Part shown: positions 12,984 through 57,080 of the stretch, piece after piece
How the letters are laid out: each line of letters starts with the position of its first letter
Numbering within the stretch: the first letter of the stretch is position 1
Assembly (NCBI GenBank): GCA_010909165.1
Contig: MU008174.1
Span: 186,001 to 250,000, forward strand
DNA from: Anthoceros angustus
Taxonomy: Eukaryota > Plantae > Anthocerotophyta
Direction: 5' to 3'
Length of the DNA stretch: 64,000 nt
Made by a program: the position numbers and the translations under genes
The notes under the pieces: generated by a model
Seen by the model: the letters and a program-made list of their open reading frames with translations, nothing else
What the model was told of the DNA's origin: nothing
Databases searched by the model: none

Positions 12984-12998
12984 TACTCCCTTCTCATT
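12984..12998 (-). other. Polypurine tract (also at 35020-35034 and ~36133-36147)
   Basis: Minus strand AATGAGAAGGGAGTA immediately before TG of the LTR. Confidence 0.85.
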
Positions 12999-13016
12999 TG
13001 TTGGCGTCCCGCCAAC

Positions 13017-25800: not shown

Positions 25801-26637
25801 TCACTGGAGGCACGTGCCTTCCCATCTCGCGCCCAATCCTCTTGCAAACCGGTGAATGGCCATTAGCTCGAGTGCGGACCGGCCCGATCCGTGGGTGGAA
25901 CCTTTCCACATAAGCTGCGGTCTCCTTCTTCTTCCCTCTCCGCATCCCTCGAGTTTGGACAAGACATATCCTTCCACATCGACCCCTCGAACCTTTCACA
26001 AAAGCTCTCTTCAAGGCCCCAAAGTAGGCGGGGTGTGGCGGAAGCTATGTACTCCCGCTTGTACCACTTGGCCGCGCTCGCGTAAGACTCCATAAAGCAG
26101 TGGGCACGATCGCATCCTCCTCACGGTTGTGGCGTCAAGCTGCTCAAAAGCGCTCGACAAACTCGTCGGGATCCTCATGGCCCTTCTTTTCTCCATACAG
26201 CGGGTAAGATTGCTTAGTAGTAACAAGCGGTCTTGCCATAACTACCGGGGTAGTACTTTCAGCAATGGTAGTTGGCCGCCACTACGTGCGGTGACCTCTA
26301 CATTCACGAAGTTTTGGGACTGCGCGGATCTAGGCAATGGGCGAGATCAAAAGACAAGGTGGGATCGTACTTACCGCTTCAGTCGAGAGTTGGGAATCAA
26401 TCCGTTAAGATCCGATCCCTAGTTCCGAGTTGACTCCTCCCCTTCCTCGTCCCAAGTGTGATCTCCGCCGTGCTCTCCTCGTAACTCTCTGCAATCTTTC
26501 CGCTTGGCGTTGCCGTCTTGCGAGCGTTTCCCCAGTCGGATCGAATCGCTTGTCTCCACCGAGGCATCCATCAATCTAGTAATGCTAGACTCTCGTAAGC
26601 TATGGTTAGTCCTTCCTCGTCCTTGATTTGATTCCAT
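16891..26637 (-). CDS. gag: gag and gag-pol spacer of internal unit 1, with repeated partial RT/PR/gag blocks
   Basis: Gag core (LSKLEGLRRGKKETLQAYVERFHSL..KDLDRAIKAALNYEES) and CCHC knuckles (CRQCYNCRGFGHLASGC) recur 3-4 times through step-back duplication; ATG at 26637. Confidence 0.8.
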
Positions 26638-26653
26638 TCCCGCAGCGGCGCCA
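26637..26653 (-). other. Primer-binding site variant (repeated at 27285-27301; degenerate near 29110-29121)
   Basis: TGGCGCCGCTGCGGGAA, 3 nt from the LTR end. Confidence 0.8.
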
Positions 26654-26656
26654 AAA

Positions 26657-35600: not shown

Positions 35601-36134
35601 TTCCTCCTCTGCGTCGCGCCTCGCGATGTCGGCGGGGTTGAGCTCCTTCCCCGTCGTTGCGCCTCGCGCCCTCCTGCGATCACGGTGCCCCGGACCCGGC
35701 TCCTCGACTTCGTCGCGCTCGCTCGCTCGCTCGCTCGCTCCGTTGTTTGAGCAGGATTACATCATTCCTAGGGTTAAGTTTCCCGGGTTCCCCTACTCTG
35801 TTCGACCTCTCGACCGCTTCCCACATCCCAATCCACAACCCACACTCATTCCCCATTTCTGGAGTCGACCCCAACTTATAGACTCTAATTATTCCAAACC
35901 CCCTATCTCACATATATAGACTTTTTAGGGAACATTAGTCCATGGGCCAAGGAACACCAAATTCCGGACCATTTATTTTCTAACCTAGGCAATAAAACAA
36001 AAAGAACTCCATAGGCCAAGGACATTTTTACTATGAATATCCCCAACTACCGTCAATCGACTTATTTTCACCACTCTCAAAAAAACAAAAATTCACTTGA
36101 GCACATTTTCAGGGTTTCGAGACTAGATCGTTTA
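26657..36134 (-). repeat. LTR-B (central shared LTR), heavily expanded by step-back duplications
   Basis: LTR left edge at 26657, again at 27305 and 29125; right edge at 35019, again near 36134. PBS on the left side, PPT on the right side. Confidence 0.8.
30640..34700 (-). CDS. LTR-encoded accessory ORF, LTR-B copy (internally duplicated)
   Basis: ORF-track 31412-31792, 32222-32404, 34059-34637; the middle block is repeated three times. Confidence 0.55.
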
Positions 36135-36165
36135 CTCCCTTCTCATTTGTTGGCGTCCCGCCAAC

Positions 36166-39100
36166 TTATGTATAATACTTCTTGACCCTCCACCCATTGA
36201 CTCGGGTGGTAGTGGAGGTCCACCTAACTCTTGCGGTTGTCTTGAGCCATTCTTGAAGACTTGAGAACTTTGTATGGCCCCATCCATCGAAGGTGGAGCT
36301 TGCCGGAAAGTGCATGTACCTATTGTCGTCTGTGAGGCCAAGTCACCGGAACTACCCACTCTTGCTTCCGCAATTGTCATGCCATATTTTCCGTTTCGCT
36401 TTGAATATCACGCATGACGCTCAACGCCTGTTCCCCTATCCTCTGTATGTTTAGCGAAGGCGACAGGCGTTCGGTGACTTTCCTCTCGCCATGCGGTTAG
36501 TTTCCGGATCGCGGTGGGAATTTCAAACTCAATAGGCATTACCGGAGAATGGCCGTAGGTGAGGTAGTACGGTGTTTGTTGCGTCGTTATTTTCTCTGCA
36601 GTCCTGTATGCCCAGAGCGCGGAGTGAAGCTTAAGATCCCAATCGTACGCATATTCCACCGTTAGTTTGTTGAGGATCCTGCACAGGAGCCCATTCGCCT
36701 TTTCCGTTAATCCATTTGCCTTGGGATTATAAGGAGTCGTTTTCCTGTGGCGAGCGTTGAAGTAGATCGTCATATGAGATATAACCGTTGTGAAATGTGA
36801 CCCTCATCGTGACAAGCTCCAAGGGACAACCATATCAGTGATAATCATTCATAGAGGAACACAGCCACTACATGGTGTCTACTGCGGTGCTTGGGCTTCC
36901 ACCATACGCGTGCAATAGTCGTGGCCACGAGGATGTATTGGTTTTGTCGCGTCCTCGTTTTGGTATGGGACCAACAAAGTCTATTCCCCATTTCTCGAAT
37001 GGCGCCGGGGCCAATATCGGAACCATTGGCCATTGAGTGGTTGCGACGGTTTCCCAACCCTCGGCGGGCATCGCAGCGTTTAACAAACTCCTAGCATCAC
37101 GATGCATGGTTTGCCACCGATACCCGTTTCAAGCACCTTCTTGCACGTGATATGTGCGCAAAATGTCCTCCGCTTCCCCTCGTGCATCTCGGACTTTCGG
37201 ATAACTGCTCCTTGTTACCCATAACTTTGTCCGCCCATCCGGTCCCGATTCTGATTGTCTTTGCGTCGTACAAGCGGACGCGAATAGTGCCTAGCGCTGC
37301 TGGGGTTTGAAAGATCCGATGGTATTTTCCCCGGTTCCAAGAATTCCATCATCTCCTCGTGAGTGGGCCTTGTGTATCCGTTCTCCCTTCTCATTTCTGC
37401 CGAGCCACCATTTACCCTCGCCTTATGGTTCGGCGTGCCGCCCCTCTAACTCATCATGACGAGCTTCATCGGAAAATCGTCGTTTTGGTCTGTGTAACCT
37501 CCTCTGTTTTCAGCCTCGAAATGTAATGCATTCACATGTTTACTCCCTCCTCTGGTCTCCACCGTGAGCGTGAATTCTTGCGGGAGTAGGATCCATCTTG
37601 CTATGCGTCCGGACAAGTCGGTTTGTTTACCGGTGTTTGAGGCGAAGTGGTCCACATGGAAGGCGAACTCGTGGGATAGCAAATAGTGGAAACTTGCGAA
37701 CCGAGTACACCATCCCAGCGCCTCCTCTCGGTGGTGGTATACTTCTTCTGCGTCGTGAGCTGCCTCCACATAATAGATTGGATAATCGTGCTTCTTGTCA
37801 TCCCTTTGGCTTAGAATGGTACCGATTGCATAGGCGGCGTCTACAAACACGTGGAACTTCTTGTTCGATCGGCCCCGTGGGTCTTGTGATCGGTGGTGCG
37901 AAGATCATTGAAGGCCTCCTCTCGTTTTTCGTCCATTCCCACTCCTGGTCCTTGCGAAGCAATTCTGTACAGCAGCGGAGCTGCCCTTCTGGAGAAATTC
38001 TTCACAAACCTTCGATAATAGCCTACCATCCCGAGGAATCCCTAAGCTCCTTGGTGGTAGGTGGCTTGAGGCGGTAATGATTTTGACCTTATCCGGTCGA
38101 CCTCTATCCCCAGCAATCGGTGCCCCAACAAAATACCCTCGGCATGCCGAAATAACACTTCTCGGGATGTAGACACAATTAGTCTGACACCGTTCGGACA
38201 TTTGCGAAGGTGGTTGAGGTGATCTTCGCTCCAAACACGCGAAGTCATCCAGAAGACCTCCATGAAGTCCCTAAGGTATTCCTTGAAAATCTTGACAACT
38301 CGCATGAAGGATCACGGTGCCCTGTTAATCCGAGCGCTCCGTTTGTAGGCATAGGTTCCCGATCAGTAGTGAAGGCATTGGTGGCCAATCACTCTCCACG
38401 AGATGTGGTTATACCGAATACCCATCCGAGAAGCAGGTAGACCATTCTCCACCGCAACTAAGTCCGATTATGTTGTCTATGAATGGAAGCGGGTAATGGT
38501 CTTTTTGGTCACCTTGTTTAACTTCCTCCAATCTGGCGGACCGTATCTTCCCTTACGCTTTTGGGAACCACCACAATTGGGGCTACCACTCCGATGTCAC
38601 AATAGGATATATGACGTCCGCAAGTAGAGCTCCAATTGTTCCTTTACCTTCGAATACTTTGGATTTAGCTTGTATTGCGGTATCCGGTGGCCGACACGGC
38701 TCGAGATCAATCTTGTGCTCCCCACTCCCTCGGTATACCCTTCATGTAACGTCAAAAGCAAAAACGTGGATAAATTCCATGCAATTTGTTTCATACCCCT
38801 TTCCAAGTGCATTCATCCTGTTGAAAACTTAAGGACCTTGCCGGGCAACACTTCCACATCCTTGACCTCATCCGTCTGCCACTCTCTCTCCACCGGCGGA
38901 TGTGATGCGAACCCTTCCTCCATGTCTTGGTTCTCCTTGGCGCATTCCCCATTCCGGAATAGGTCGTCGAGGTAAAGCGTGAGACACCCTCCTCGCACCC
39001 TCCAGTTTGTCGGATCGTCGCTCCCGGCTCACCTCTACTTCTTGTTCCTCGACCTCCGTCTGGTCTCCTCGATCCACCACGGGTTGTCAATTGTGACTCC

Positions 39101-41700
39101 ATAGCACCCTAATAGGTTGATGGAATGGGAATATCTCTCCGTGTCGTCCTCTTCATCGACCACGAAATATGTGCGAATGGGAATTTCTCCTTCTCATCCT
39201 CTCCCAGGTATCTTGAGGTGTATCCCTCCGTTTCGTGGGTGTCTCCCTCGTCGTATCTGCTCCAAGTCAAACATATCCTTCCTCCTTAATTTTGGGGTCC
39301 CAGTCCAGGTTTGAATCCCACTTCCTTTCTCGCCCCATTTGAAGGTGCAACGTGCCCCATACATCCATGTTCGTCAATGAGAACCTCATACCACAGCGCT
39401 TTTTGTTTAATGACCACGTAGTCCATGAGTGCGGAATGGTACCAATATGGGTTAGGACTCCGTCACTCCCCTACGGCGCCATTTTGGACATGTCCGCCAA
39501 CACCTTTGATGTATGTTCTATCGCAACCCAAGCTTCCGGTCTCCTCATCATGATGTTGACTCGACCGGAATCTAGCGGCACCTTCTTGATTACACATCCA
39601 TAATTTCTATCTGTAGCTCAGAGTCGTCCATCATGGCCACCATATTCACAGCAAGGGATTTCGGCCTTGGGGTGGAAAGGTTCCGTCTCTTCTTGGGTTG
39701 TGCCGCCTTCAATGCCCCAGTTCTTTGGCGGTCGCGGATTGTCCACGAGAAGTCGACGTTATCATGAACTTTTGGTCCATGATAGCGTCCAAATTGAAAG
39801 GAACACTGTTGTGCTTCTGTTTCTCCTTGCCAACCCCCCGTCATTTCAGCATGATGTCTTTGAGATGTTGCGGTCGTTGAAACATGGTAGGTGGCTTGAG
39901 GCGGTAATGATTTTGACCTTATCCGTCGACCTCTATCCCCAGCAATCGGTGCCCCAACAAAATACCCTCGGCATGCCGAAATAACATTTCTCGGGATGTA
40001 GACACAATTGGGTGTGACACCGTTCGGACATTTGCGAAGGTGGTTGAGGTGATCTTCGCTCAAACACGCAGAAGTCATCCGGAAGACCTCCATGAAGTCC
40101 CTAAGGTATTCCTTGAAAATCTTGACAATCGCATGAAGGATCACGGTGCCCTGTTAATCCGAGCGCTCCGTTTGTAGGCATAGGTTCCCGATCGTAGTGA
40201 AGGTTAGGCCAATCACTCTCCACGAGATGTGGTTATACCGAATACCCATCCGAGCAGGTAGACCATTCTCCGCAACTAAGTCCGATTATGTTGTCTATGA
40301 ATGGAAGCGGGTAATGGTCTTTTTGGTCACCTTGTTTAACTTCCTCCAATCTGACGTATCTTCCCTTACGCTTTTGGGAACCACCACAATTGGGGCTACC
40401 CACTCCGATGTCACAATAGGATATATGACGTCCGCACGCAAGTAGAGCTCCAATTGTTCCTTTACCTTCAGCGAATACTTTGGATTTAGCTTGTATTGCG
40501 GTATCCGGACTGGCACGGCACCCGGCTCGAGATCAATCTTGTGCTCCCCCCACTCCCTCGGTATACCCTTCATGTCTGTAACGTCAAAAGCAAAAACGTG
40601 GATAAATTCCGCCAACAGCTGTTTCATACCCCTTTCCAAGTCTGCATTCATCCTGTTCGAAAACTTAAGGACCTTGCCAGGCAACACTTCCACATCCTTG
40701 ACCTCATCCGTCTGTACCCACTCTCTCTCCACCGGCGCGGATGTGATGCAACCCTTCCTCCATGTCTTGGTTCTCCTTCGCGCATTCCCCATTCCGGAAT
40801 AGGTCGTCGAGGTAAACGTGAGACACCTCCTCGCACCCTCCGAGTTTGTCCGGATCGTCGCTCCCGGCTCGACCACCTCTACTTCTGTTCCTCGACCTCG
40901 TCCGGTCTCCTCGACCACCGGGTTGTCAATTGTGACTCCATAGCACCCTAATAGGTTGATGGAATGGGAATATCTCTCCGGTAATCGTCCTCTTCATCGA
41001 CCACGAAATATGTGCGAATGGGAATTTCTCCTTCTCATCCTCTCCCAGGTATCTTGAGAGGTGTATCCCTCCGTTTGTGGGTGTCTCCCTGCGTATCTCT
41101 GCTCCAAGTCAAACATATCCTTCCTCCTTAATTTTGGGGTCCCAGTCCAGGTTTGAATCCCACTTCCTTTCTCGCCCCATTTGAAGGTGCAACGTGCCCC
41201 ATACATCCATGTTCGTCAATGAGAACCTCATACCACAGCGCTTTTTGTTTAATGACCACGTAGTCCATGAGGTGCGGAATGGTACCAATATGGGTTAGGA
41301 CTCCGTCGGCTCCCCTACCGGCGCCATTTTGGACATGTCCGCCAACACCTTTGATGTATGTTCTATCTGCAACCCAAGCTTCCGGCGGTCTCCTCATCAT
41401 GATGTTGACTCGACCGGAATCTAGCGGCACCTTCTTGATTACACATCCGCAATTTCTATCTCAGAGCTCAGACCCCAGTCCATCATGGCCACCATATTCA
41501 CAAGGGATTTCGGCCTTGGGGTGGAAAGGTTCTCTCTTCTTGGGTTGTGCCGCCTTCAATGCCCCAGTTCTTTGGCGGTCTCCTCGACCACGAAATATGT
41601 GCGAATGGGAATATCTCTCCGTGTCGAGCGTTATCATGAACTTTTGGTCCATGATAGCGTCCGCCAAATTGAAAGGAACACTGTTGTGCTTCTGTTTCTC
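36166..41700 (-). CDS. pol: pol of internal unit 2 (RT-PR block duplicated at ~39883-41580; frameshifted)
   Basis: HRKTTPYNPKANGLTEKANGLLCRILNKLTVEYAYDWDLKLHSALWAYRTAEK..TPYYLTYG (INT); same RH, RT and PR motifs as unit 1. Confidence 0.9.
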
Positions 41701-44065
41701 CTTGCCAACCCCACCGTCATTTCGCGGTAGCTGTTTGAGATGTTGCGGTCGTTGAAACAGTGGCGGTAGGTGGGTGGGTCGTGGGTGGGTCGATGGCCAA
41801 AATACGGCCGTCTGTTCCGATTCTTGTCGGATCATATCCATAACCTTCCCGACATCGGGCGGAAGCGCCGACTCATCCTTTTTCCTCTTGCGGGTTTTCG
41901 CCCCATGTGTCGACTCGAGTCCCGCTGTCGTCCTCGTTTTGCACTTCACCCTCGAATCCAGCGGTCTCCTGCTAAGGGAGTTACACGTGATGCCATCCAA
42001 TCGCAACCTCGCGTTAAGTGTGGCGTTCGTGCCTTGCTCCCGTCCGGATTCGCATGCCCTTTTTTTGACTCCCATACCGAGTCCCTCGTCGGTTGTGGTT
42101 GGACTTCTCTTCCTTCCCTTTGATGAACGCCTCTTCCTCCTCACTTGCGGACGTTATGGAAGCTCCACTCCGTTCTTCTTCCTTTTTCCTCGCTCCCCTT
42201 CTTAGGGTGTCCGCCTTCCTCTCGCTCGTGTCCGAGCGACCATCGCGGGAGTTCCGTAATACCCACTATCCACATCCCCAACCCTTCCAGCTCCTCGGTG
42301 CAGCCTCGGAATCCTCCATCTGACCATGAGCGCATCTTGACTTGCATTGCGGCAGGCTTTCTTTGCGGGGTGGGTCGCCGTCGGAGGTTGAGCGATCCTC
42401 ACTGTTTTCGGTGTCTGGCGGAGGGGCGCCCTCGTGACTGATTGCTTGCGGTCCACACACCTTTCAAAATCACCATTCCTGGCGAGATGCGGAGGGGCAT
42501 CCAGCAAGATGCCCGAACCCTCGGCAATTGTAACATGGCACTCATTTGCGGGGTTCCTTGCCATCGATTGCGAATGCCCATGCACATGGGGTTTCGCAAA
42601 CTCGAGGTACAAAGTTTTGGTACCCAGAGATCGGTGTTGCCTCTTGAATTTGGTATGTATCTTCCAAGCACATCTCCTCATCCTCCTCCTCGTAGCCCAG
42701 TAGTTGCACTTTTGTTTGTGGACAGTTCGACCTCGAGTGCCCCTGCTGTCCACAAGTTGAGCAGAAGAGATTCGCCCGCGCTCCAGTAGCAACCCTTCTT
42801 CTATCATGGTCCTTGATGGCATTAAGATGGAGTTTCTCCAGTTTGACCATCATTTCCTCCATCTTGTTCCCTTGTTGCTCCACTTTTTTGGCTGCTGTTT
42901 CCACCTCTCTTCTCACACTCCGCGTCCTTTCGTGCATATAGCAGCTCCTTCCCTTTTGCACGTCGTCTTGTTTCCCAGTCATTTTTTCCCTTCTTCCTTC
43001 TATCCCTTCGGTTGCGCTCACCTTCTGACGAATTCTCCTCCGAATCCTCGCTGGTCTCCTCTTCCGTGGAGCTACCCGAGGAGTCAGTTGAAGAGCTATC
43101 CTCCTCCGCGGAACTGTCATCGGAGGACGAATAGTACTTCTTCTTCTTTTGTATTTCTTTTTGTCCTTCCGTGCGCCCTTGTTCGAGTTCTTCTTCTCTT
43201 CCGCGTTGGACTCCTCATAGTTCGGGCGACTTTAATCGATCCAAATCTTTCTCACTGAGGCGCGTGCCTTCCCATCTCCGCCCAATCCTCTTGCAAACCG
43301 GTGAATGGCCATTAGCTCGAGTGCGGACCGGCCCGATCCGTGGGTGGAACCTTTCCACATAAGCTGCGTGTCTCCTTCTTCCCTCTCCAGTCCCTCGAGT
43401 TTGGACAGACATATCCTTCCACATCGACCCCTCGAACCTTTCACAAAAGCTCTCTTCAAGGCCCCAAAGTAGGCGGGGTGTGGCGGAAGCTATGTACTCC
43501 CGCTTGTACCACTTGGCCGCTCCGCGTAAGACTCCATAAAGCAATGGGCACGATCGCATCCTCACGGTTGTGGCGTCAAGCGCTCGACAAACTCGTCGGG
43601 ATCCTCATGGCCCTTCTTTTCTCCATACAACGGGTAAGATTGCTTAGTAGTAACGAGCAGATCGCCATAACTACCGGGTAGTACTTTCAGCAGCTGCGGT
43701 AGTTGGCCACTACGTGCGGTGACCTCTACATTCACAGTTTGGACTGGCGGATCTAGGCAATGGGCGAGATCAAAAGACAAGGTGGGATCGGTACGGCCCC
43801 TTATGCATCGAGAGTTGGGAATCGAATCCGTTAAGATCCGATCCCTAGTTCCGAGTTGACTCCTGCCCCCTTCCTCGTCCGCAAGTGTGATCTCCGCCGT
43901 GCTCTCCTCGTAACTCTCTGCAATCTTTCCATGCTTGGCGTTGCCGTCTTGCGAGCGTTTCCCCAGTCGGATCCGAATCGCTTGTCTCCACGAGGCATCC
44001 ATCAATCTAGTAATGCTAGACTCTCGTAAGCTAGGGTTAGTCCTTCCTCGTCCTTGTGATTCCAT
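41701..44065 (-). CDS. gag: gag of internal unit 2 with two CCHC zinc knuckles (frameshifted)
   Basis: MESQGRGRTNPSLRESSITRLMDAS.., SYPLYGEKKGHEDPDEFVER, CSTCGQQGHSRSNC (~42722-42763) and CYNCRGFGHLA-GC (~42480-42535). The lower boundary is approximate. Confidence 0.85.
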
Positions 44066-44082
44066 TCCCGGCAACGGCGCCA
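44065..44082 (-). other. Primer-binding site, tRNA-Asp
   Basis: TGGCGCCGTTGCCGGGAA; 17/18 complementary to the plant tRNA-Asp(GTC) 3' end as recalled (TCCCCGGCAACGGCGCCA). Confidence 0.88.
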
Positions 44083-45029
44083 AAATGTGGAGTGTGGATT
44101 CGTGTCCGGGGACACCGTGAGGTCCACATTCACCCTCAATGTCGTTGTAGGCTTAGGATTCGCTCCCAAGGGAATGGTTTGTGCCGAGGCGCTAACTTCT
44201 ATCGCTCGACCTTCACCTAAGTCAAGACTTACTTGCTATTACTCCTCTTACCTATCTACTCAACCACTACTACCCCCGACTTGTCTAGCTACCACACTCT
44301 TATTCCACGACCGCAAATCTCATTCCACGGCTGGGGCTCTCACCGGGTAGTTGCTTGACCACCGAGGTGGGTCCCACACCAAACCCTAGCGACTTATTTC
44401 CGGCGCCGGCGGATCCACCGCAGGCGTCCACGTGCGGATCCGGCTTTGTGCACTCCACACTTCATGCACACACACACCATTCCTAGGGACCTAAATTCCA
44501 CAAATCCTCACGCTCCACACACACACAAAGGCGCCACACTCACACAACTTTACAAGGGAACTGTTCCCCTTGCACTTCCACCAGACCGGTTTGGTTTCTT
44601 TTGGATTCACACAATCTCCGCTAGCCTCTCAATTAGTTCCCTTCTCAACCCTCTCACACCTCGCATCGCGTCTGATGTTTAGTCACTCCTTCACCCAATC
44701 TTCTCCCTCTCTCTCTCTCCCTCAATTCGCCCAGCTTCCAACCATCCACTCAACACTTCTCTCAATTGAACACAACTAGCGGGACAAGTGTGAAGGAAGA
44801 AGAACCCCAGGCGTCACGGCGTTGAGCAAGCTCCGGACCCGCCCGCCAATCCCTTGGTTTCCTCCTCCTTTGTCGGCAAGATTGCTTTATCACCCCTCCT
44901 CCCAGTGCGGAGCAAGCTCTCGACCACCCCTAGGGCGTCTCGCACACCGCCTCATCAATCGGACGTCTCCAACCAGCCACAGGCGTGGGGATCTCAACCA
45001 GAGTTATCGGCGTGAGGGACCTAATTCGC

Positions 45030-45040
45030 CCCTCTTATAC
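45030..45040 (-). promoter_or_regulatory. Probable main LTR TATA box (GTATAAGAGGG), downstream of the LTR ORF
   Basis: Present in every inner LTR copy and identical to outer element 55439-55449. AATAAA lies ~360 nt from the LTR 3' end in LTR-B copies (27664-27669, 29505-29510). Confidence 0.55.
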
Positions 45041-45149
45041 ATCGGTGGGGCACCACCGGATTTTAGGTCCTAAGATGGCTATCACGAAGGCGCCCACAAT
45101 TCGGGCGATCCTAGGTCGATCGACATCCTAACCAAATTATCTTTAGGTT

Positions 45150-47643
45150 GCTACCACCTCACCTCGCTGTCTGCGCCCTACCTCGACTTGGCCGTCGGCC
45201 TCGTCCTCCATTGCTGCCGCCACGAGCTCTCCGCCGCGCCCGGCTGGACGGGTTCTCCCACACTACTTCCACCTCACATCCTTCTGGGCGTCCGAATTTG
45301 AGGTGTACCACCTGGGCTTCCGCATCTTCCGGCCTATTCTTGAGGATTATTCGGTTCCTCGTCCACCCAAGCTGGACCTCCTCCTCGCTCAACTCCTCCA
45401 AAGTCGCCTCCGCGCATAATAGGAGCCAACCCCACACCGGCGCGGTGGTAGAAGTATGCACTTGGTCCTCACTTGCGATGGTAGGCCACGATCCCTCCTA
45501 TTTCCACACGCACATGGGCGGTGAGGTTAAGCACGCGTTCTCCATTCACATATAGACCGAGCACATAAGTTTCCTCATCCATGTGCCGTAATATAATAGG
45601 ACCCCTATGCGGTGAGGTGCTTACCCCTCCTCCGTAGGCTACACACAGTTGCTGGCCTATGTCCTCGCGGCGCCACGTCGCATCTGTCGCCCGCCCGCTT
45701 GGGTTGGTTGCGCCAATGTCGGTGGCGGTTTCGACTACGGTAGTGGACTCCACGGCCGTCGTTCGTTCGACAACCGCGGTAGGTGAGGTTTCGGCTACCT
45801 CGGTTCTTTGCTTCCTTCCGCTCGGTAGGCCTTCCTACTCGATCGTGGTCCTGCTACCCGCTTCCCTTCCCTTCCCTTTGTCTTTTCGGCCCGCCACGTG
45901 CCTCATCCGCTCCGCTTATATCGCTCCGCTAGCTTATGGGCCTTTTCCACGAGGCCGCTTCACGCTCTGGGCTCGCAACAACTCCCCATCTCTGGTTCGT
46001 CTGTGGGCATCCTTAATTTGAGCCATGAGTGCTTCCTGGCTCGTCATGGCTTGCAACTTCTCACAGGCCTGCACAAATCTTCTTGAATCTTGGCCCTTAT
46101 TTCCTCTAGGTTCCGCTTGTCTTCCTCCGATTGCTTGCGCTTGGCCTCCTCTTATCAAACGCCTTCACCACTTCCTCCGTCGCCCGAGCCGGTGAGAGCT
46201 AAAGCCGCTTGATCCAACAAATGCTTGGGCCGGATCGCCGTGGTCGGCTCACCAAGTCCACTTGTTGTGGCGGCCCGCGCCATCCCTCTCGAGAACTTTC
46301 CTCCCAGCAGTGCGCACCCTCACCAATTCGGTTGCATCCACCTCTGTTGCGGTGGAGTCCCTTGAAAATCTCTTCCCATCTTTGAGGAGGGTCCGCCTCG
46401 AGGTCAGCCCTAAACCCTCGGAGTTGATTCATCATCGCATCCGGTCGAAAATTGTCCTCGGATCGCGCCTCCTCTTACGCCACCTCCAAGCTGGTTTGGC
46501 TTTCATTTTCTAGCTGGCCGTTTTCGACACAGTGGCCGCGCATCCGCCTTCACCTTTTTCGATGCCGCCTTCACCCCGGTCTTCCTCCTTTTCTTTGGTG
46601 GGAATTTCCTTCTCCTCCTCCTTGCCGCCACCGACTCCCAGCTATCCGATTTTTCCTCCTTGGGCTCCTCCGCCTTCCACTTCACCTCCCTAACCGGCTT
46701 CCACATGTGGAGGGAGGCTACAATCTCCACCTCTGGCAGACAGTTAGCGTAAACATAAAGATGGACCAGAAATGGTGAGATTAGAGAGGGCCGAGGGGCA
46801 GAGGAAATCAGGTTCAACCTCTCTTCACACAGCTTGTCGAAGAGAATTCGCCCCCAATCGATCTTCGCCCCCTTGACCACTTCATGAAGGAGCGGCAAGT
46901 GGTCGGACAAATAATCCACTTCTTGTCTGCGAAACATAGGAGCCACTGGCGGACCCATCAAGCTGTTGCCAAATCCCTCGTCAACGGCCGTTGGGTTCGA
47001 ATTCGCCCGCTTTAACGGGCGGTGCTGCTGCCGTGCTTCTTTTCTGGGCGGCTCCATCACCAACCGCCCGCCTCCTCCTTGCCCATACACCCTTCTAACC
47101 ACTCCGGTCCCAATCCTGCGGCCGCTCTAAATCCCCTTTGTTCATCCTTGGTGTGCGCACACTCTGCACCAGTCCAGTTCATGTAATTCCACCGCTCTTC
47201 CATGAAACCCGGCTCCTTCACAGCTCCCAGCTCGAACTTTCCAATGATCCATGTTCGGCCATTGGGCAAGCACAATTCGGTGGTGACCTTGGGCGCCATC
47301 CCTCTCACGGTCTTCACGGTCTCGCGCCACAAACCAACGCCACCTCGCTGCGAATTTCACGGTCGGTCTCGAGTTCCTACCTCCTCGGCAAGGCGCGCTG
47401 TCATCGCGCCTTCCTCCTCTGCGTCGCGCCTCGCGATGTCGGCGGGGTTGAGCTCCTTCCCGCCGTCGTTGCGCCTCGCGCCTCCTGCGATCACGGTGCC
47501 CCGGACCGGCTCCTCGACCGTCGCGCTCCGCTCGCTCCGTCCGGCCGCCGTTGCGCTCCGTTGTTTGAGCGGGATTACATCATTCCTAGGGTTAAGTTTC
47601 CCGGGTTCCCCTACTCTGTTAAACCTCTCGACCGCTTCCACAT
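45150..47643 (-). CDS. LTR-encoded accessory ORF (~830 codons, reconstructed across indels), LTR-C copy
   Basis: Collinear fragments: WEAVERSNRVGEPGKLNPRNDVILLKQRS; GMAPKVTTEIVLAQWPNMDHWKV..PGFMEERWNYMNW; KGAKIDWGRILFDKLCEERLNLIS..LVHLYVYANC; coiled coil EEIRAKIQEDLCRAQEKLQAMTSQQEALMAQIKD; C-terminal GPIILRHMDEETYVPGLYVNGERVLNLT..EATLEELSEEEVQLGW. Confidence 0.65.
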
Positions 47644-47731
47644 CCCAATCCACAACCCCACACTCATTCGGCTACCGGCGTCAGTCGACCCCAACTTATA
47701 GACTCTAATTATTCCAAACCCCCTATCTCAC

Positions 47732-47738
47732 ATATATA
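47732..47738 (-). promoter_or_regulatory. Second TATA box (TATATAT) near the LTR 5' end, upstream of the LTR ORF
   Basis: AAAAAGTCTATATATGTGAG, ~230 nt inside the LTR and ~90 nt before the ORF start; conserved in all LTR copies. Confidence 0.5.
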
Positions 47739-48739
47739 GACTTTTTAGGGAACATTCCGAGTCCATGGGCCAAGGAACACCAAATTCGGACCATTTATTT
47801 TCTAACCTAGGCAATAAAACAAAAGAACTCCATAGGCCAAGGACATTTTACTATGAATATCCCCAACTACCGTCAATCGACTTATTTTCACACCACTCTC
47901 GACCAAAAAACAAAAATTCACTTCAGAGCACATTTTAACAGGGGTTTCCGAGACTAGATCGTTTACACCCTCCCGGAGTGGAGGCGGGCAAGGCGTCGGA
48001 GGAGGAGGCGGTCGACAAACCAAGCGGACTCGGGAGGAGGAGGCGGGAGGGATTCGGACTCCATACGTCAGAGCGGACCCCCTCTCACGGTCTTCACGGT
48101 CTCGCGCCACAAACCAACGCCACCTCGCTGCGAATTTCACGGAGGTCGGTCTCGAGTTCCTACCTCCTCGGCAAGGCGCCATCCCTCTCACGGTCTCGCG
48201 CCTTCCTCCTCTGCGTCGCGCCTCGCGATGTCGGCGGGGTTGAGCTCCTTCCCGCGTTGCGCCTCGCGCCCTCCTGCGATCACGGTGCCCCGGACCGGCT
48301 CCTCGACCGTCGCCGGTTGGTGCTCCGTTGTTTGAGCGGGATTACATCATTCCTAGGGTTAAGTTTCCCGGGTTCCCCTACTCCTGTTCGACCTCTCGAC
48401 CGCTTTCCCACATCCCAATCCACAACCCCACACTCATTCATTCACGCCGCTTGGGTCGACCCCAACTTATAGACTCTAATTATTCCAAACCCCCTATCTC
48501 ACATATATAGACTTTTTAGGGAACATTCCGAGTCCATGGGCCAAGGAACACCAAATTCCGGACCATTTATTTTCTAACCTAGGCAATAAAACAAAAAGAA
48601 CTCCATAGGCCAAGGACATTTTACTATGAATATCCCCAACTCAATCGACTTATTTTCACACCACTCACTCGACCAAAAAACAAAAATTCACTTGAGGCAC
48701 ATTTTAACGGGGTTTCGAGACTAGATCGTTTACACCCTC

Positions 48740-51700
48740 CCGGAGTGGAGGCGGGCAAGGCGTCGGAGGAGGAGGCAGTCGACAAACCAAGCGGACTCGG
48801 GAGGAGGAGGAGGCGGGAGGGATTCGGACTCCATACGTGGCGGACCCCTCACCACCCAGTATGGGAAGCAATTCCCGCCTCCCTCCTCGGCAAGGCGTCG
48901 GAGGAGGCGGAGGCGGCCCGGCCCAGCGGCCCGCCACGGCTATCACTCGGTGAGGCCCCCGGACCGAGAGGCCGAAGCGCAAGACCACGGCTACCAGCGG
49001 TACCCGGTCGGTGCAGTACCTCTTCCCTGCGGAGTGGCAAGCGGAGGAAGCGATGGGAGGCGAGAAAGGGCCGCCGAGGCGGAGGACAGCGGCGGCCGCA
49101 TCGAGCCGGTCTGTCGCCCGGCAGGAAGGGCAAAAGGCGTGCTCCGGACTCCATCACCTCCGCGAGCCCGGGAGAAAAGAGGCGGAGAAGGGCTCATGAC
49201 CAAAAGGGCCAAGGAGGAAGCTCGGGAGCTCGGCCTCGGGACCTAAGGGTCTGAGTCCGAGAACCGTCCGGACTTGCTCGGCTGCGGTATGGAGGTCCTT
49301 GACCGTGAGATCAGCTCCCATAGCGGACTTTGTGGGAGCCTCACGGCGGCCGTGGAGGAAACAGGCGGGTCACAGCTACCGTCATGGGCGGTATGCTCAC
49401 AGGGTCATGCGGGATGGCGAGAAGGCCCGGAGGTGGAAGCCACCGGGCGCATGGTGCTCCTCCGGGAGGCGGTTGGAGGAGCCAGGAGGCGAGAAGGAGG
49501 AAGCTCTCGGCGGATTGAGGAAGCGATGGGAGGCGGAGGAGAGGAGGTCTGGTCCATCGCAGGGGCCGGACCAAATTCCTTCAGTGGAGGAGGCGGAGGA
49601 GGAGGCCCAAGCAGGCGGAGGAAGCCTTTGGAGGAAGCGATGGGAGGCGGAGAAGGGCTCATGTGGAGGCGGAGGAGGAGGCGGAGGAAGCGATGGGAGG
49701 CGGAGGAAGCGATGGGAGGCGGAGAAGGAAGTGGAGGAGGCGGAGGACAGCGGCGGCCGTCGCGATCACTATCGGCGTGATCGGGCCGGTGGAGGAGGCG
49801 GAGGCGGGCAAGGCGTCGGAGGAGGCGGAGAAGGGCTCATGTGGAGGCGGAGGCTGGAGGCCGGCACCGGAGATTGGGGACCTCGAGTGCAGTGCGAGGT
49901 AGAAGAGGCGGGCGGGCTGGAGGACAACAAGGACACCTTGGGTTGCAACTCCAAGATGCATCAGGCGGCGGGGTTCTCAGAGAATCCAAGACTTGACGAG
50001 AGGTGGAACGCCTCCGGCTCGCAGACGGAGGAGAGCGGCGGTGCAAGGAGTTCGGCGTCGCCGGTTGCGGCGGGGCGTGGCGGAAGCCGAGTCGGACGGG
50101 GATCTCCGCTGGAGAAGGAAGTGGAGGACCTCAGGAGAATAGAAGAAGGAGGAAGCCTTTGGAGGAAAAGTGCTCGTCCGGTTGCGAGGCGAAGGGAGCT
50201 CGGCTCCATGGCCCATAATGGCGGGCTGGAGGACAACAAGGAGGAGGAGGCAGCGGCGAAGGTTGCAAGAGTAGCAGGCGGCCTTGGCGGCCTCAAAGTC
50301 CGCCCGCCTACGGTGGTGAGCTTGGCCACGGAGGCAGGCCCGGCGGCGGGCGGTCTGCTCGATTCTGGAGCACCTTTGGAGGAGAGTCTGGGTGCTCGGG
50401 CTCATGTGGAGGAGGCGATTCGGCAAGTCGATTCCGACTTCGCCTACTACCAGAGCTCCTCAAGGCTCTGGAGGTCTGCGCCACCCTAGGCGGGAGGTGG
50501 ACTTCGGAAGGACGGAAGGAGGCGAGGGAGGGCGGACCGGGGCACTGGCAGGAGTCCTAGGGCTGTTTGGCAGCAGCGGCGGCGAAGGAGGCGGAGGAGG
50601 AGGAGGAAGGCCGGACCCGGAGGAAGCCTTTGGAGGAGAGCGGCGGCGGAGGCGGAGGCTGGAGGTCTGCGCCACCCTAGGCGGAGGAGGAAGGCCGGAC
50701 CAAATTCCTTCAGTGGAGGAGGCGGAGGAGGCAGGAGGAGGCGGAGGCGGAGGACCTCTGCGAGGCGGAGGCGGAGGCGGAGGAAGCGATGGGAGGCGGA
50801 GGCGGAGGAGGCGGAGGACAGCGGCGGCCGTGGACGAGCCAAGGGAGGCTCGGTGAAGGTGGCCAGGAGGCGGAGGACAGCGGCGGCCGTCGCGATCACT
50901 ATCGGCGTGATCGGGCCGGTGGAGGAGGCGGAGGAGAGCGGCGGCGAAGGAGGCGAGAAGGAAGTGGAGGAGGCGGAGGCTGGAGGCGGAGGAGGCAGGA
51001 GATTGGGGACCTCGAGTGCAGTGCGGGAGAGTAGAAGAGGCGGCGGGGAGGCTGGAGGACAACAAGGACACCTTGGGTTGCAACTCCAAGATGCATCAGG
51101 CGGCGGGGTTCTCAGAGAATCCAAGACTTGACGAGAGGTGGAACGCCTCCCGGCTCCGCTTGAAGGAGGAAGCAGTGCAAGGAGTTCGGCGTCGCGAGTT
51201 CTGGCGGGGCGTGGCGGAAGCCGGGAGGCGGAGAAGGAGGAAGCCTTTGGAGAAGGAAGTGGAGGACCTCAGGAGAGAATAGAAGAAGGAGGAAGCCTTT
51301 GGAGGAAAAGTGCTCGTCCGGTTGCGAGGAAGCGAAGGGAGCTCGGCTCCATGGCCCATAAGCGGCGGAGGCTGGAGGACAACAAGGAGGAGGAGAGCGG
51401 CGGCGGCGAAGGTTGCAAGAGTAGCAGGCGGCCTTGGCGGCCTCAAGGGTCCGCCCGCCTACGGTGGTGAGCTTGGCCACGGAGGCAGGCCCGGCGGGGC
51501 GATCTGCTCGATTCTGGAGCACCTTTGGAGGAGTGCTGGGTGCTCGGGCTCATGTGGAGGCGATTCGGCAAGTCGATTCCGACTTCGCCTGAGCTCCTCA
51601 AGGCTGGAGGTCTGCGCCACCCTAGGCGGGAGGTGGACTTCGGAAGGACGGAAGGAGGCGAGGAGGAGGAGGCGGACCGGGGCAACTGGCCGGAGTCCTA

Positions 51701-54700
51701 GGGCTGTTTGGCAGCGGCGAAGGAGGCAGGAGGAGGAGGAGGAAGGGCGCCACAGGAGGTAAGCCCTCGGCACCCTCGCATGGAAGGACGAGGAGGATCT
51801 TGAAGGGAAAGGGTGCAACGGGCATTCGGGAACCAAGGGAGGCTCGGTGGATGAACCCGTGGCTAGCCGTGAGGAGGCAGGAGGAGGCGGACCGGGAGAT
51901 TGGGGACCTCGAGTGCAGTGCGGGAGAGTAGAAGAGGCGGAGGCTGGAGGACAACAAGGACACCTTGGGTTGCAACTCCAAGATGCATCAGGCGGCGGGG
52001 TTCTCAGAGAATCCAAGACTTGACGAGAGGTGGAACGCCTCCAGCTCCGCTTGAAGGAGGAGGAGAGGCGGCGGTGCAAGGAGTTCGGCGTCGCAAGGTT
52101 GCGGCGGGGCGTGGCGGAAGCCGAGTCGGACGGGGATAAGCGCTGGAGAAGGAAGTGGAGGACCTCAGGAGAATAGAAGAAGGAGGCGGAGGAGGAAGCC
52201 TTTGGAGGAGAGGCTACGATTGCTCGTCCGGTTGCGAGGCGAAGGGAGCTCGGCTCCATGGCCCATAAGCGGCGGGCTGGAACAGCAGCGGAGGAGGAGA
52301 GCGTCGGCGGCGAAGGTTGCAAGGCGGCCTTGGCGGCCTCAAGAGTCCGCCCGCCTACGGTGGTGAGCTTGGCCACGGAGGCAGGCCCGGCGGGGCGATC
52401 TGCTCGATTCTGGAGCACCTTTGGAGGAGTGCAGGTGCTCGGGCTCATGTGGAGGCGATTCGGCAAGTCGATTCCGACTTACCTGCGAGCTCCTCAAGGC
52501 TCTGGAGGTCTGCGCCACCCTAGGCGGGAGGTGGACTTCGGAAGGACGGAAGGAGGCGAGAGGAGGAGGCGGACCGGGGCAGCACCACAGGAGTCCTAGG
52601 GCTGTTTGGCAGCAGCGGCGAAGGAGGCGGCGGAGGCAGGAGGAGGAAGGGTCGCCACAGGAGGTAAGCCCTCGGCACCCTCGCATGGAAGGAAGAGGGA
52701 GGATCTTGAAGGAGGAAGGGAAAGGGTGCAACGGGCATTCGGGAACCAAGGGAGGCTCGGTGGATGAACCCGTGGCTAGCCGTGAGGAGGCATGCCGAGG
52801 CACGAGGTCGGACTTTGTCCGGACTCCGGCGGATCCAGTCCGGCCCCAGAAATCTGGACTTAGGGATCCGGACTCTAGTAGTCCGGACCCGAGGTCCGGA
52901 CCCGAGGAAGGTTGGGTCAGGCCGGACCCAGGCGATCCGGTCCCAGGGCCGGACTCGGCGGCGGGCCGGACCCGGAGGAAGGCCGGACCTAGAGGTCCGG
53001 ACTCGGTCGAGACAGTCTGAGGTCCAAACTCGGGAGTGGGGAGAGCCACATCCCAATGAGATCCACCCTTGGAGGCCGGACCCGGAGGAAGGCCGGACCC
53101 GGAGGAAGCGATGGGAGGCGAGGAGGACTTGGTGGTGACCGCCGTTGTCGAGGCCGCCGGTGGCGCGGCAGACCCTCGGGAAGAGGAAGGGTCGCCTCGC
53201 GGATCATCCGATTGGGTCGAGGCGGGGAGCTCGGCCTCGGGACCTAAGGGTCACGGTCGGAGAACCCGGTCCGGACTTGCTCGGCTGCGGTATGGAGGTC
53301 CTTGACGGACCGTGAGATGCGGCTCAAGCGGACTTTGTGGGAGCCTCACGGCGGCCGTGGAGGAAACATGGCGGGTCACAGCTACCGTCATGGGCGGTAT
53401 GCTCTAGATGCATGCGGGATGGCCGAGAAGGCCCGGAGGTGGAAGCCACCGGGCGCATGGTGCTCCTCCGGGAGGCGGAGGAGGCGGCCAGGAGGCGAGA
53501 AGGAAGGCCGGACCCGGAGGAAGCCTTTGGAGGAAGCCGGGAGGCGAGAGGAGGTTTGGTCCATCCGCAAGGACGGACCAAATTCCTTCAGTGGAGGAGG
53601 CAGGAGGAGGCAGCCAAGGAGGCCCAAGCAGGCGGAGGACAGCGGCGGCGAAGGAGGCGGAGGAGGCGGGAGGTGGACTTCGGAAGGACGGAAGGAGGCG
53701 GAGGACAGCGGCGGCCGTGGACGAGCCAAGGCTGGAGGCTCGGTGAAGGTGGGAGGCGGAGGAGGCAGGCCCGGCCGATCGCGATCACTATCGGCGTGAT
53801 CGGGCCGGTGGAGAGGCGGCCGAGAGGCCGGCCAATCGAAGGCCGGACCTAGAGGTCCGGACCCGGAGGAAGCTCGGGCTCATGTGGAGGAGGCGGAGGA
53901 CCTCAGGAGAGATTGGGGACCTCGAGTGCAGTGCAGGAGGTAGAAGAGGCGGCGGAGGCTGGAGGACAACAAGGACACCTTGGGTTGCAACTCCAAGATG
54001 CATCAGGCGGCGGGGTTCTCAGAGAATCCAAGACTTGACGAGAGGTGGAACGCCTCAGCTCCGCTTGAAGGCCGGAGGAGAGCGGCGGCGGTGCAAGGAG
54101 TTCGGCGTCGCGTTGCGGCGGGGCGTGGCGGAAGCCGAGTCGGACGGGGATACCGGCCGCTGGAGAAGGAAGTGGAGGACCTCAGGAGAATAGAAGAAGG
54201 AGGAAGCCTTTGGAGGAAAAGGTACTGCTCGTCCGGTTGCGAGGCGGAGGAAGCGAAGGGAGCTCGGCTCCATGGCCCATAAGCGGCGGCGAAGGAGGCG
54301 GAGGACAACAAGGAGGAGGAGGCGGCGGCGAAGGTTGCAAGAGGTAGAAGAGGCGGAGGAGGCAGCCTTGGCGGCCTCAAGAGTCCGCCCGCCTACGGTG
54401 GTGAGCTTGGCCACGGAGGCAGGCCCGGCGGCGGGGCGATCTGCTCGATTCTGGAGCACCTTTGGAGGAGAGGTGCTCGGGCTCATGTGGAGGCGGTCGG
54501 CAAGTCGATTCCGACTTCGCCTACCGCAGAGCTCCTCAAGGCTCTGGAGGTCTGCGCCACCCTAGGCGGGAGGTGGACTTCGGAAGGACGGAAGGAGGAG
54601 GAGGAGGAGGAGGCGGACCGGGAGACAACTGGCGGGGAGTCCTAGGGCTGTTTGGCAGCAGCGGCGAAGGAGGCGGAGGAGGCGGAGGAAGGGCGCCACA

Positions 54701-55330
54701 GGAGGTAAGCCCTCGGCACCCTCGCATGGAAGGACGAGGAGGATCTTGAAGGAGGAGGAGGATCTTGAAAGGGTGCAACGGGCATTCGGGAACCAAGGGA
54801 GGCTCGGTGGATGAACCCGTGGCTAGCCGGCGAGGCATGCCGAGGCACGAGGTCGGACTTTGTCCGGACTCCAGAAAGGCGGACCGGTCCGCCCCGGAAA
54901 TCTGGACTTAGGGATCCGGACTCTAGTGGGTCCAGGCCGAGGTCCGGACCCGAGGAAGGTTGGGTCAGGCCGGACCCGGAGGAAGGCCGGACCCGGAGGA
55001 AGGCCGGACCCGGAGGCGGAGGCGGACCCGGAGGAAGGCCGGACCTAGAGGTCCGGACTCGGTCGAGACAGTCTGAGGTCCAAACTCGGGAGTGGGGAGA
55101 GCCATCGTCCACCACTGATCCAACCCTTGGAGGCCGGACCTAGAGGTCCGGACCCGAGGAAGGGGCGAGGAGGACTTGGTGGTGACCGCCGTTGTCGAGG
55201 CCGCCGGTGGCGCGGCAGCAGACCCTCGGGAAGAGGAAGGGTCCGCCTCGCGGATCATCCGATTGGGTGCGCGCCGGCGGCAGGGCTCGGCTTTGGGCCG
55301 CCGGTGCCAAGAAGGAATGAGGGGCCATCC
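48740..55330 (+). CDS. Outer-LTR ORF continuation: low-complexity E/G/A/R-rich region with internally repeated modules (frameshifted)
   Basis: Continues after the CCCTC TSD; GGA/GGC-rich. Module LEDNKDTLGCNSKMHQAAGFSENPRLDERWNA appears four times (~49920, 51055, 51945, 53960). The true length cannot be determined. Confidence 0.4.
54969..55045 (+). repeat. 17-bp minisatellite GGCCGGACCCGGAGGAA
   Basis: Three to four adjacent copies; also scattered near 52965, 53075-53105, 53510 and 55630-55695. Confidence 0.65.
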
Positions 55331-55438
55331 CGGCCCACCACACGGCGATAGGTGGAATAAGCGGGTAGTAGGCGGTGGTTAGGGTACCACAGTGGCCCTC
55401 GGGAATAGAGGTGTAATAAAGGCGCCGACCTTGGCGTA

Positions 55439-55449
55439 GTATAAGAGGG
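55439..55449 (+). promoter_or_regulatory. Outer-element TATA-like motif GTATAAGAGGG
   Basis: 11-nt identity with the inner LTR motif; ~590 nt from the element end; AATAAA at 55415-55420. Confidence 0.5.
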
Positions 55450-57080
55450 CTAAGGCATACAGATAAATCATCTTTCTCTTGGTGTTGATGCGCGTTCTTG
55501 CGGACCTTTGTGTGTCTTCTTGCTAACGTGAGTCTGAGTCAGGCGAGGCACGGCTCGGGAGATTGATCAAGGTCACGGTGGCGGACCTAACGCGTTGTGG
55601 TGTGTGCGGGGAAGGGTGGCGGTGACCCGTGCTCGTCGGAGCAGCGGAGGAAGGCCGGACCCGAGGAAGGTTGGGTCAGGCCGGACCCGGAGGAACTCGG
55701 GAGGCGTCTGAGCCGGACGGAGGCCGGAGCAGCGGAGCAGCGGAGGAGGTCGGGGCATGTAACCAGCGTCTTTTCTAAGGCGAGAGTGTAGCGTGAGGGG
55801 AGAGGAAAGGCGGATGTGAGGGACGGATGTGAGCGATCTTGACAGGTCCTTAAGCGTTTAGCCATCTGGGCTGTCACGGTGAAACGTTGTGAGTAGTTAG
55901 GAGTATGTGTGTGTTGAGCGAGCAGGCGCTAAGGGCGGTAGGAATCACAAGCAGTGGAGCCTATCATTCCCTTAGGGCGGACTTCTTCCTACAACGACCT
56001 TGCAGGATTGTGGCGCGGCCATCGTGAGTCGCGCCACAGCCATGACAAGAATGGAGGAGCAATGGAAGATGATGAAATGAGAATGGCTCAAAAGGAAATA
56101 GCTCAATGCTTTGTCTTTGGTAGGTGTCCACATATATACCTTTTGATTCACTCTTATCTCGATATCTCAAGTGTTAAAAATCGAAGGAAATGTTCACTAA
56201 TGACATTAGAAATATCATATTAAACTTGTGTGAGAAGAGTTTTCAAGGTTCTTGCAATTACTTATTTAATGCAACTAAAAGATATTACTATGCAAAATAT
56301 ATCCTAGTGAAAGCGAACATTAAGAAGTACTAGAGGTAGTACGCTGGGCAATCTACCATGGCCATGACAAGAGGAACAGGACAAGTACAAGTCACTTATT
56401 GATCAAATGATCAAGCGCCAAGTCGGGCCCTACCTTGTTTTCCGGTCCACCTCCACTCTCGGATGCATGCGCGATTAGCCTCCTCTACATGTATTTCGTG
56501 CGGTACCTTCACAGCTTCGGCAATATAACAAAGGCTTCCGGTATGAGCTCCCCTTATGTCATAGTACACTCTTCCATTCGTTGAGCTTTCCAGCAGCTCT
56601 TATGCGTTCGACACAATATATGCGGTCCTCACCTACATCTCGTAAGTCATTGAAGCCAATCAGCCTTTTACAGCCCACTCAACCAAGATGCTTTGGGGAT
56701 CTCCTGTTGCAATTCTCGGCTGCTGAGAGAGGCTCACACCATCTCTTGTAAGAGAGCCTCAGCTTTTCTCAAGGCTGCATTTGGTGCTTAGTTCCAGTTT
56801 AAAATTGTGTGGGGAAGGAGATCTCGAGCGATCCTTTGGTGCACAATGCGCGAGAGAAAAATCCATTGATAGGCGGGGATCCCACGGCCAGCTGTGAGTA
56901 CACTGACACGGAACATAAACGAAAGAGACGATTGCCACAGATGCATTCGCAGCTATTTATTACTTATAATGATAATGATGGAATGTTTACACAAATCATT
57001 AACCTTAGCATTAAAAATAATGCAAGGATAAAATCAATTGAAATATACCTCCATCATAAAAGAAGAAACTTCGCTAGTGT

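Follow-up and report, generated by a model that had tools for sequence, protein, structure and literature searches.

A long terminal repeat of 3.9 kb that probably encloses an accessory gene in a Ty3/gypsy retrotransposon of Anthoceros angustus

In plant retrotransposons, long terminal repeats (LTRs) are generally regarded as lacking coding sequence, and the formation of solo LTRs is seen as the host disarming its elements. In animal retroviruses, whose LTRs and U3 open reading frames (ORFs) are much shorter than those considered here, HIV nef and foamy-virus bel overlap U3, and among plant elements the Cassandra terminal-repeat retrotransposons in miniature (TRIM) have a 5S rRNA unit in their LTRs. 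By analyzing a 64,000-nt stretch of Anthoceros angustus DNA (assembly GCA_010909165.1, contig MU008174.1, positions 186,001 to 250,000; hereafter the window), we found a Ty3/gypsy element on the minus strand, probably with an accessory gene enclosed in each of its 3.9-kb LTRs.

The U3 of mouse mammary tumor virus (MMTV) contains sag/naf and an extra promoter, P2 (PMC9412291), whereas for plant elements reviews (PMC7264820; PMC6317226 Additional files 4 and 5) describe extra ORFs as part of the internal region. The 3' extra ORFs of Athila elements are env-like, ATHILA ORF-1 (PF03078) or Transposase_32 (PF20167) (PMC6317226, PMC7264820, PMC11728184), and they usually lie between pol and the LTR, e.g. 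PF03078 at 3'F in 166 elements (PMC6317226 Additional file 4). Athila6A has an ENV ORF with its own internal promoter (PMC4977677), the ORF(+) of sunflower Athila 14 has PF20167 together with a nuclear signal (PMC11728184), and for the Athila-domain and VANC proteins of Arabidopsis, predictions give coiled-coil pentamers that contact many host proteins (PMC13547354). Within the Tat lineages, Z1 and Z2 exist without the aRH domain (PMC10508981; PMC13468544). Retrosat2, RIRE3, RIRE8 and FRetro3 have LTRs of more than 3.2 kb and an ORF0 (PMC3485330), while Ogre LTRs reach about 5 kb (PMC6317226); a length of 3.9 kb is thus no obstacle, since LTRs of 3-5 kb are known. No account of a plant LTR with a protein-coding ORF in it was found in the literature searched, which included few subscription papers, and the element tables and sequences of PMC6317226 may include such elements. 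Passages of PMC7251063 and of a cranberry preprint contributed nothing on LTR-borne ORFs.

Limits of the LTR and the reading frame inside it

Read on the minus strand, the element consists of a target site duplication (TSD), TG at 47967, CA at 44086, TTT, the primer binding site (PBS), gag, protease, reverse transcriptase (RT), RNase H and integrase, the polypurine tract (PPT) and further LTR sequence, the last of which ends with CA at 7690 and is followed by GAGGG at 7689-7685. An initial annotation of this DNA had fixed an LTR of about 3.9 kb from TSD, PPT and PBS, and this holds, with a length of 3,882 bp, a 5-bp TSD, and three PPT and four PBS junctions in agreement. The PPT (AAATGAGAAGGGAG) stands immediately 5' of the LTR start at three internal junctions (~36135, 35019 and 12983), and the PBS (TGGCGCCG...) follows the LTR end at four places (44086, 29125, 27305 and 26657). 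At the outer junction, the word that opens the LTR comes directly after the TSD (twice, via a stutter copy); at the three inner ones, it comes after the PPT. Furthermore, one short-read contig crosses the PPT/LTR junction at ~36132 (indel row, depth 170/268). Because these junctions agree, the LTR limits are as good as certain, whether or not the tandem of three LTRs is real. Only 33 nt lie between the integrase stop and the TG of the LTR, leaving no 3' internal region; instead of lying between pol and PPT, where Athila has its extra ORF, the ORF described here is inside the LTR.

Profile matches in the internal region comprise zf-CCHC (E 0.002-0.003), a protease (E 0.025) and RT_RNaseH (E 2e-10 and 2e-11), while RT and integrase motifs were read by eye in broken frames. 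Together with the TG...CA ends, TSD, PBS, PPT and the order gag-protease-RT-RNase H-integrase, this is the constitution of a Ty3/gypsy element. Its PBS is presumably of the tRNA-Asp type, an Athila-like motif; the window has no tRNA gene. Between RNase H and integrase or after integrase, where frames are broken, neither aRH nor a chromodomain was seen by eye, and the similarly broken interval between protease and RT holds two pieces without Pfam match. The 5-bp TSD is also that of Athila (PMC6317226 Additional file 5), and judging from these sequence features the element is likely a member of the Athila/Tat group. One related locus (L001:1-4906) is a distant Ty3/gypsy gag-pol fragment on a metagenome contig, without LTR. 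Words reading AACCCTAG occur at ~47590 and 44035 (minus strand), before the leader and just past the PBS; we take these to be telo-box-like.

All tests of coding and frame are limited by the unpolished state of the repeats, which is evident from the many indels by which both copies and short-read contigs disagree. Self-comparison revealed overlapping tandem re-copies throughout the window. Substitutions between copies amount to 0.7-3.2% and indel events to 1.8-5.0 per 100 columns, alike for LTR, pol and DNA outside the transposable element (TE), with 1.9-5.0 for LTR pieces, 3.8 for pol copies and 2.1-2.5 for non-TE duplicates. Against the short-read contigs, the window showed 89 indel disagreements over 43600-48070 and 109 over 35260-37400. 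These contigs derive from the one DNA sequencing run that was listed for the window (share 0.35), possibly its own source; no RNA run was listed, and a second run gave no contigs on the window, which is no indication about expression. The re-copies are 0.3-2.9 kb long, differ mainly by indels, affect both TE and non-TE DNA, and look like unmerged noisy long reads. The summed depth of the short-read contigs was on average higher in LTR and ORF bins than in integrase bins, which was not counted as evidence, nor used as copy number, because of more than 100-fold swings between neighboring bins.

Despite these indels, a coding signal is visible. The 3-periodicity of the ORF reached z +4.3 in copy A and +3.5 in copy C, with +2.2 and +2.4 for pol, +0.3 and +2.5 for the 3' parts of the LTR, and -1.9 for its 5' part. 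Stop triplets were depleted in the sense frames of the ORF (z -1.9 and -1.8), not in the antisense frames. Among exact blocks of at least 60 nt shared by two places in the window, none of the 19 within the ORF had all sense frames closed (6.6 expected from shuffles). The corresponding counts were 7 of 11 for the 3' part of the LTR, 5 of 9 for its 5' part and 2 of 11 for pol. Since periodicity, sense-only stop depletion and the absence of closed long exact blocks favor a real gene, the LTR very probably contains one or more of these.

The gene length of ~2.5 kb suggested initially is doubtful. About 2.15 kb (47299-45143) is better supported, because the leader (47590-47300) is aperiodic (z +0.2) and the upstream ATG is closed at once in three of five pieces, which read ATG-ATG-TAA, with a frame opened in the other two. 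The basic N-terminus that was part of the same suggestion falls in this leader and is likewise doubtful. As for the claim that all three LTR copies share one long frame, the ORF span does recur in each, but it is open in none, the middle copy (B) being composed of nine overlapping pieces and copy C carrying a triplicated block of ~750 bp. Within the ORF, stop-free stretches extend to at most 207 codons in A and 238 in C, and within pol to 152 and 171 codons. Out of 121 indel clusters over 47640-45140, 32 were private to A and 46 to one other piece. With these 78 private clusters, and with gag/pol and non-TE duplicates equally hit, the frame breaks look like assembly error. The spacing of shared stop triplets modulo 3 was uninformative (11 pairs), and 16 biallelic sites were found in or near the ORF span.

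Two candidate promoters flank the ORF, as the initial annotation had stated: a TATATAT upstream (47738-47732) and the word GTATAAGAGGG downstream (45040-45030). The latter is followed by GA/GT tracts, AATAAA and the terminal CA. The AATAAA, also part of that annotation, lies ~590 nt past the downstream TATA in five other pieces, but it is not intact in the copy at 44086-47967. With the downstream TATA taken as the start of the genomic RNA, the ORF, which sits between the LTR start and this TATA and so within the LTR as does MMTV sag, would quite probably belong to U3. Such a start would leave a leader of 1,013 nt with nine ATGs before gag.

By eye, the predicted protein has a globular N-terminal part, a charged linker, a coiled-coil-like part and a beta-rich C-terminal part, in line with the coiled coil and C-terminal domain noticed initially. 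The initial view that it is not env-like is supported, since no transmembrane-grade segment occurs in the sense frames of the five pieces (best 19-residue Kyte-Doolittle mean 1.43). By analogy with Athila ORF1/Transposase_32 or VANC, which it would resemble in combining a globular domain with a coiled coil, we infer a soluble, probably nuclear and oligomeric accessory factor that may act in trans on silencing or host partners. A stretch reading IDWGRILFDKL...LISPFLVHLY may resemble Transposase_32 (PF20167), a likeness for which a Pfam scan of frame-broken pieces gave no match. A nuclear-localization signal at the Arg/Lys stretch at ~46620 was dropped, as the other copies read this stretch in another frame. 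A metagenome scan yielded 256 pattern matches, none confirmed, while searches of PDB sequences gave a best E of 1.5 and, in a second search, no match. One 154-residue piece modeled with AlphaFold2 without an alignment (pLDDT 45.5, pTM 0.22) was too poor for a fold search. All homologue searches are weakened by the broken frames.

A further, LTR-like element built in a similar way

That this arrangement is biological and of some age is indicated most strongly by a second TG...CA element on the plus strand, likely of another family, which shares it. The ends of this element are the break points of a repeated flank. It measures ~4.6 kb after removal of stutter, with an ORF of its own spanning ~3.2 kb, and has no tblastx match to the gag-pol internal region. 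From TG to the MAPK ATG there are 654 nt, as compared to 668 nt in the target LTR; both LTRs have TTTTGTTTTTTG ~45-55 nt in from the start; and within the window the 11-mer GTATAAGAGGG is confined to position 55439 and to five pieces of the target LTR. The ORF region has a coding signal of z +4.0, with stops at z -2.0 and -2.3. The target retrotransposon is nested inside this ORF.

The two LTRs share no similarity by blastn, and DNA similarity over the region aligned between the families is at z 0.7. At the protein level, the best of 15 frame pairs between the two ORFs gave a motif region score of 57 (z 4.0), and a frameshift-tolerant alignment gave collinear matches over ~160 codons. With stricter penalties the N-terminal domains of A and B2 scored 87 and 96 against the second element, with antisense scores of 37-44 and control maxima of 78 and 74 for 114 window chunks, and 76 and 71 for 100 Markov shuffles. 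We regard the second element as a probable solo LTR, belonging to a distant family and carrying a homologous gene. Having the same layout and no gag-pol, it lends structural support to the earlier proposal that a solo LTR could serve as an expression unit.

The preferred reading and its alternatives

On balance we favor, as reasonably probable, an element likely of the Athila/Tat group whose LTR holds a probably coding accessory gene, likely in U3, and most likely brought there by a shift of the PPT. The genomic RNA would start past the downstream TATA and end near the AATAAA, with the order gag-pol-PPT-ORF-R, and through reverse transcription both LTRs would then receive a copy of the ORF together with the promoter that precedes it. 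Solo LTRs would retain a unit of promoter, ORF and poly(A) signal. If the PPT moved to a position upstream of a cassette of the Athila type, i.e. a 3' extra ORF in the arrangement pol-ORF-PPT, exactly the observed layout would result. We offer this origin tentatively, and no intermediate of such a shift was found. Less likely than not is a further-reaching reading, in which an old lineage of Athila/Tat-like plant retrotransposons has made the LTR into a self-contained gene cassette of 4-5 kb. At least two families unalignable as DNA would then have retained, in U3 and driven by a separate promoter, a homologous protein from an unnamed family, each solo LTR being a dispersed gene that might supply a trans-acting (e.g. 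anti-silencing) factor after the loss of gag-pol.

Several observations count against an intact gene of this kind. No copy has an uninterrupted frame across the ORF, so that the single open frame that was to be looked for is absent from the copies in the window, and 43 of the 121 indel clusters are ambiguous or shared. A 57-nt block common to A, B5 and C (identity over 56-59 nt) closes all sense frames. Antisense frames are open in 18 of the 19 exact ORF blocks, and base composition therefore contributes to the openness. Taken by itself, the globular part is aperiodic (z +0.4), and a z of +2.5 was reached by one of the non-coding 3' parts of the LTR. Near the ORF stop, no relic PPT was seen by eye. 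Homology is likewise elusive, with no meaningful Pfam match, including PF03078, PF20167, PF10536 and PF04195, for LTR-ORF pieces among 18, 6 and 42 proteins, all frame-broken fragments; none scored among 779, 138 and 448 candidates from searches with stop-free pieces, which covered longer proteins only; and no match at E 0.001 in an HMMER scan of 1.84 billion representatives. In the comparison with the second element, copy C scored 61, within the control range, the region was picked after the motifs had been seen, and only one of 16 C-terminal comparisons passed the controls, none of them in copy A. Moreover, the second element has no cleanly readable TSD, and a counterpart of the upstream TATA was not seen there.

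The closed block leaves room for two coupled ORFs instead of one, of ~465 codons (globular part and coiled coil) and ~255 codons, joined by an ATGA overlap at 45906-45903 and translated most likely by termination-reinitiation. The identity of three copies over 56-59 nt at this point and the confinement of cross-family similarity to the N-terminal part agree with this, as does the fact that none of the best 12 of the 89 short-read indel rows falls inside the block. However, closed blocks shared to the same extent also occur in the core of RT (2 of 56 blocks at least 30 nt long) and in gag (7 pairs among 166 blocks), as compared to one site among 100 blocks in the ORF, so that shared breaks are a known fault of this assembly, and an A before TGA is frequent by chance; we consider two ORFs unlikely. 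A homopolymer cause of the shared break was not supported, with 90 of 160 one-base deletions in base runs compared to a background of 51%. In the leader of B2 (~34600, minus strand), a 19-nt word is identical to part of the closed block (45925-45907, minus strand) and differs in the other copies, possibly as a mis-correction artefact or an internal repeat.

The placement in U3 has its own competitor, in which transcription starts at the upstream TATATAT and the ORF, as first cistron, lies in R or U5, comparable in function to Ogre ORF1 or Retrosat2 ORF0, though located 5' of the PBS. In its favor, the LTR begins with an AT-rich stretch that contains two TATA-like words and is identical in all five pieces, but the downstream TATA is the word common to the second family, and the GA/GT tracts, AATAAA and CA after it follow the usual U3-R-U5 order. 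Gag would moreover be preceded by ~3.7 kb of RNA that includes a long ORF, with a strong-stop DNA of ~3.6 kb, and we regard such a placement as rather improbable. Still less credit is given to a relic in decay, an ancient accessory gene that is passively carried along, silent and broken in most genomic copies: the lack of an open copy, the weak or absent periodicity of the globular part, the shared closed block and the lack of homologues in protein collections would fit, but pol is broken equally though recently working (copies ~1-3% substitutions apart), no long exact block out of 19 is closed, and protein-level similarity extends across families without DNA similarity. Hardly credible, finally, is an assembly chimera of misjoined pieces with a true LTR of ~1.1 kb and an internal ORF. 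The whole window does stutter, non-TE DNA included, and the three-LTR tandem may be an artefact, but the same TG start follows the TSD in two stutter copies and the PPT at three inner junctions, a short-read contig spans one of these junctions, there is no PPT-TG near 45140, and the second family has the same layout.

Coordinates of the features in the 64,000-nt window
Feature	Position	Strand	Remarks
5' LTR (copy A), TG...CA, 3,882 bp	44086..47967	-	TSD at 5' end, PBS at 3' end
TSD GAGGG	47968..47972	-	Repeated at 48735-48739 in stutter copy of the junction
Matching TSD GAGGG past the 3' LTR	7685..7689	-	
PBS TGGCGCCGTTGCCGGG	44067..44082	-	
Internal region: gag (zinc knuckle), protease, RT, RNase H, integrase	36136..44085	-	~6.1 kb without stutter copy
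PPT directly 3' of the integrase stop	36135..36148 (also 35022-35035)	-	
Middle LTR (B)	26657..36134	-	Patchwork covering the whole LTR and ORF
Second internal region	12984..26656	-	Heavily stuttered; ends with integrase stop and PPT (12986-12999)
3' LTR (copy C)	7690..12983	-	Same ORF at ~12357-10270; triplicated ~750-bp block
Candidate promoter of the LTR ORF, TATATAT	47732..47738	-	Second TATAAG at 47700; identical in 5/5 pieces
GC-rich leader	47300..47590	-	N-terminal extension unsupported in 3/5 pieces
LTR ORF span, MAPK start to EVVAT-stop, ~720 codons nominal, ~2.15 kb	45143..47299	-	Indel-broken in every copy
Block identical in three copies, all sense frames closed	45893..45949	-	TGA (45905-45903) overlaps ATG (45906-45904)
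Downstream TATA word GTATAAGAGGG, putative genomic-RNA promoter	45030..45040	-	~100 nt past the ORF stop
AATAAA	44444..44449	-	Position known from 5 other pieces; not intact in copy A
Second TG...CA element, left part	6069..7689	+	TG 6069, MAPK ATG 6723
Second TG...CA element, right part (stuttered)	48735..56038 (or from 47968)	+	Rest of ORF, GTATAAGAGGG 55439, CA 56038; no gag-pol similarity

The window as a whole is plant-like eukaryotic DNA with a sugar-transporter gene, an AlkB-like piece and repeats resembling lipid-transfer proteins (LTP). At 60831-62033 (plus strand) lies an intact, intronless nucleotide-sugar-transporter-like gene of 400 codons (TPT, E 7e-11), from which it follows that some of the unique DNA is well polished, as opposed to the repeats. 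A 2OG-Fe(II) oxygenase (AlkB-like) piece is found at 62292-62990 on the minus strand (PF13532, E 5e-25). Both 3774-6068 and 56039-60195 consist of arrayed units of ~1.33 kb, and every unit has, on the minus strand, a small Cys-rich ORF that presumably belongs to an LTP-like family; the second TG...CA element is inserted a few bases from the start codon of one such unit. The entire target, at 7690-47967, is an LTR-internal-LTR-internal-LTR tandem inside one TSD pair, either by unequal recombination or by large-scale stutter.

Comparison with described systems

If a gene of ~700 codons does reside in the LTR, solo LTRs would remain protein-coding and each insertion would double the gene. Surveys seeking extra ORFs upstream of the polyprotein or downstream of it may have missed an LTR-borne class as such. 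A move of the PPT would be a simple route from the Athila order pol-ORF-PPT to an MMTV-like U3 gene, and solo LTRs, by uncoupling the gene from transposition, would provide a natural test of the function of plant extra-ORF proteins.

Among the described systems, Athila shares with the present element the Ty3/gypsy constitution (here with no aRH visible by eye in the broken frames), the 5-bp TSD, presumably the TGGCGCCG PBS, a sense extra ORF that would lie downstream of pol on the RNA, a candidate second promoter for this ORF, and a product that by eye is globular with a coiled coil. The sharp contrast drawn with Athila initially stands as regards the PPT, which here lies 5' of the ORF, so that the ORF is in the LTR, is present twice per element, and would persist where only a solo LTR is left; it is less sharp otherwise, since the RNA order gag-pol-ORF is that of Athila and the Athila6A ENV ORF has a promoter of its own (PMC4977677). 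In addition, neither a Pfam match nor a transmembrane segment was found here. Similar to MMTV are the position of the ORF inside the LTR, apparently upstream of the main promoter, and the candidate second promoter, but MMTV, HIV and foamy viruses are animal retroviruses, whereas this is a plant element with a span of ~720 codons in what is probably U3. The Retrosat2 group and Ogre also have very long LTRs, plus an additional ORF without known function, though they are of other lineages, with these ORFs described as upstream of gag-pol or between pol and LTR and not in the LTR. Lastly, Cassandra TRIM elements also carry a gene-like unit inside a plant LTR, but theirs is non-coding, transcribed by Pol III and situated in a short LTR.

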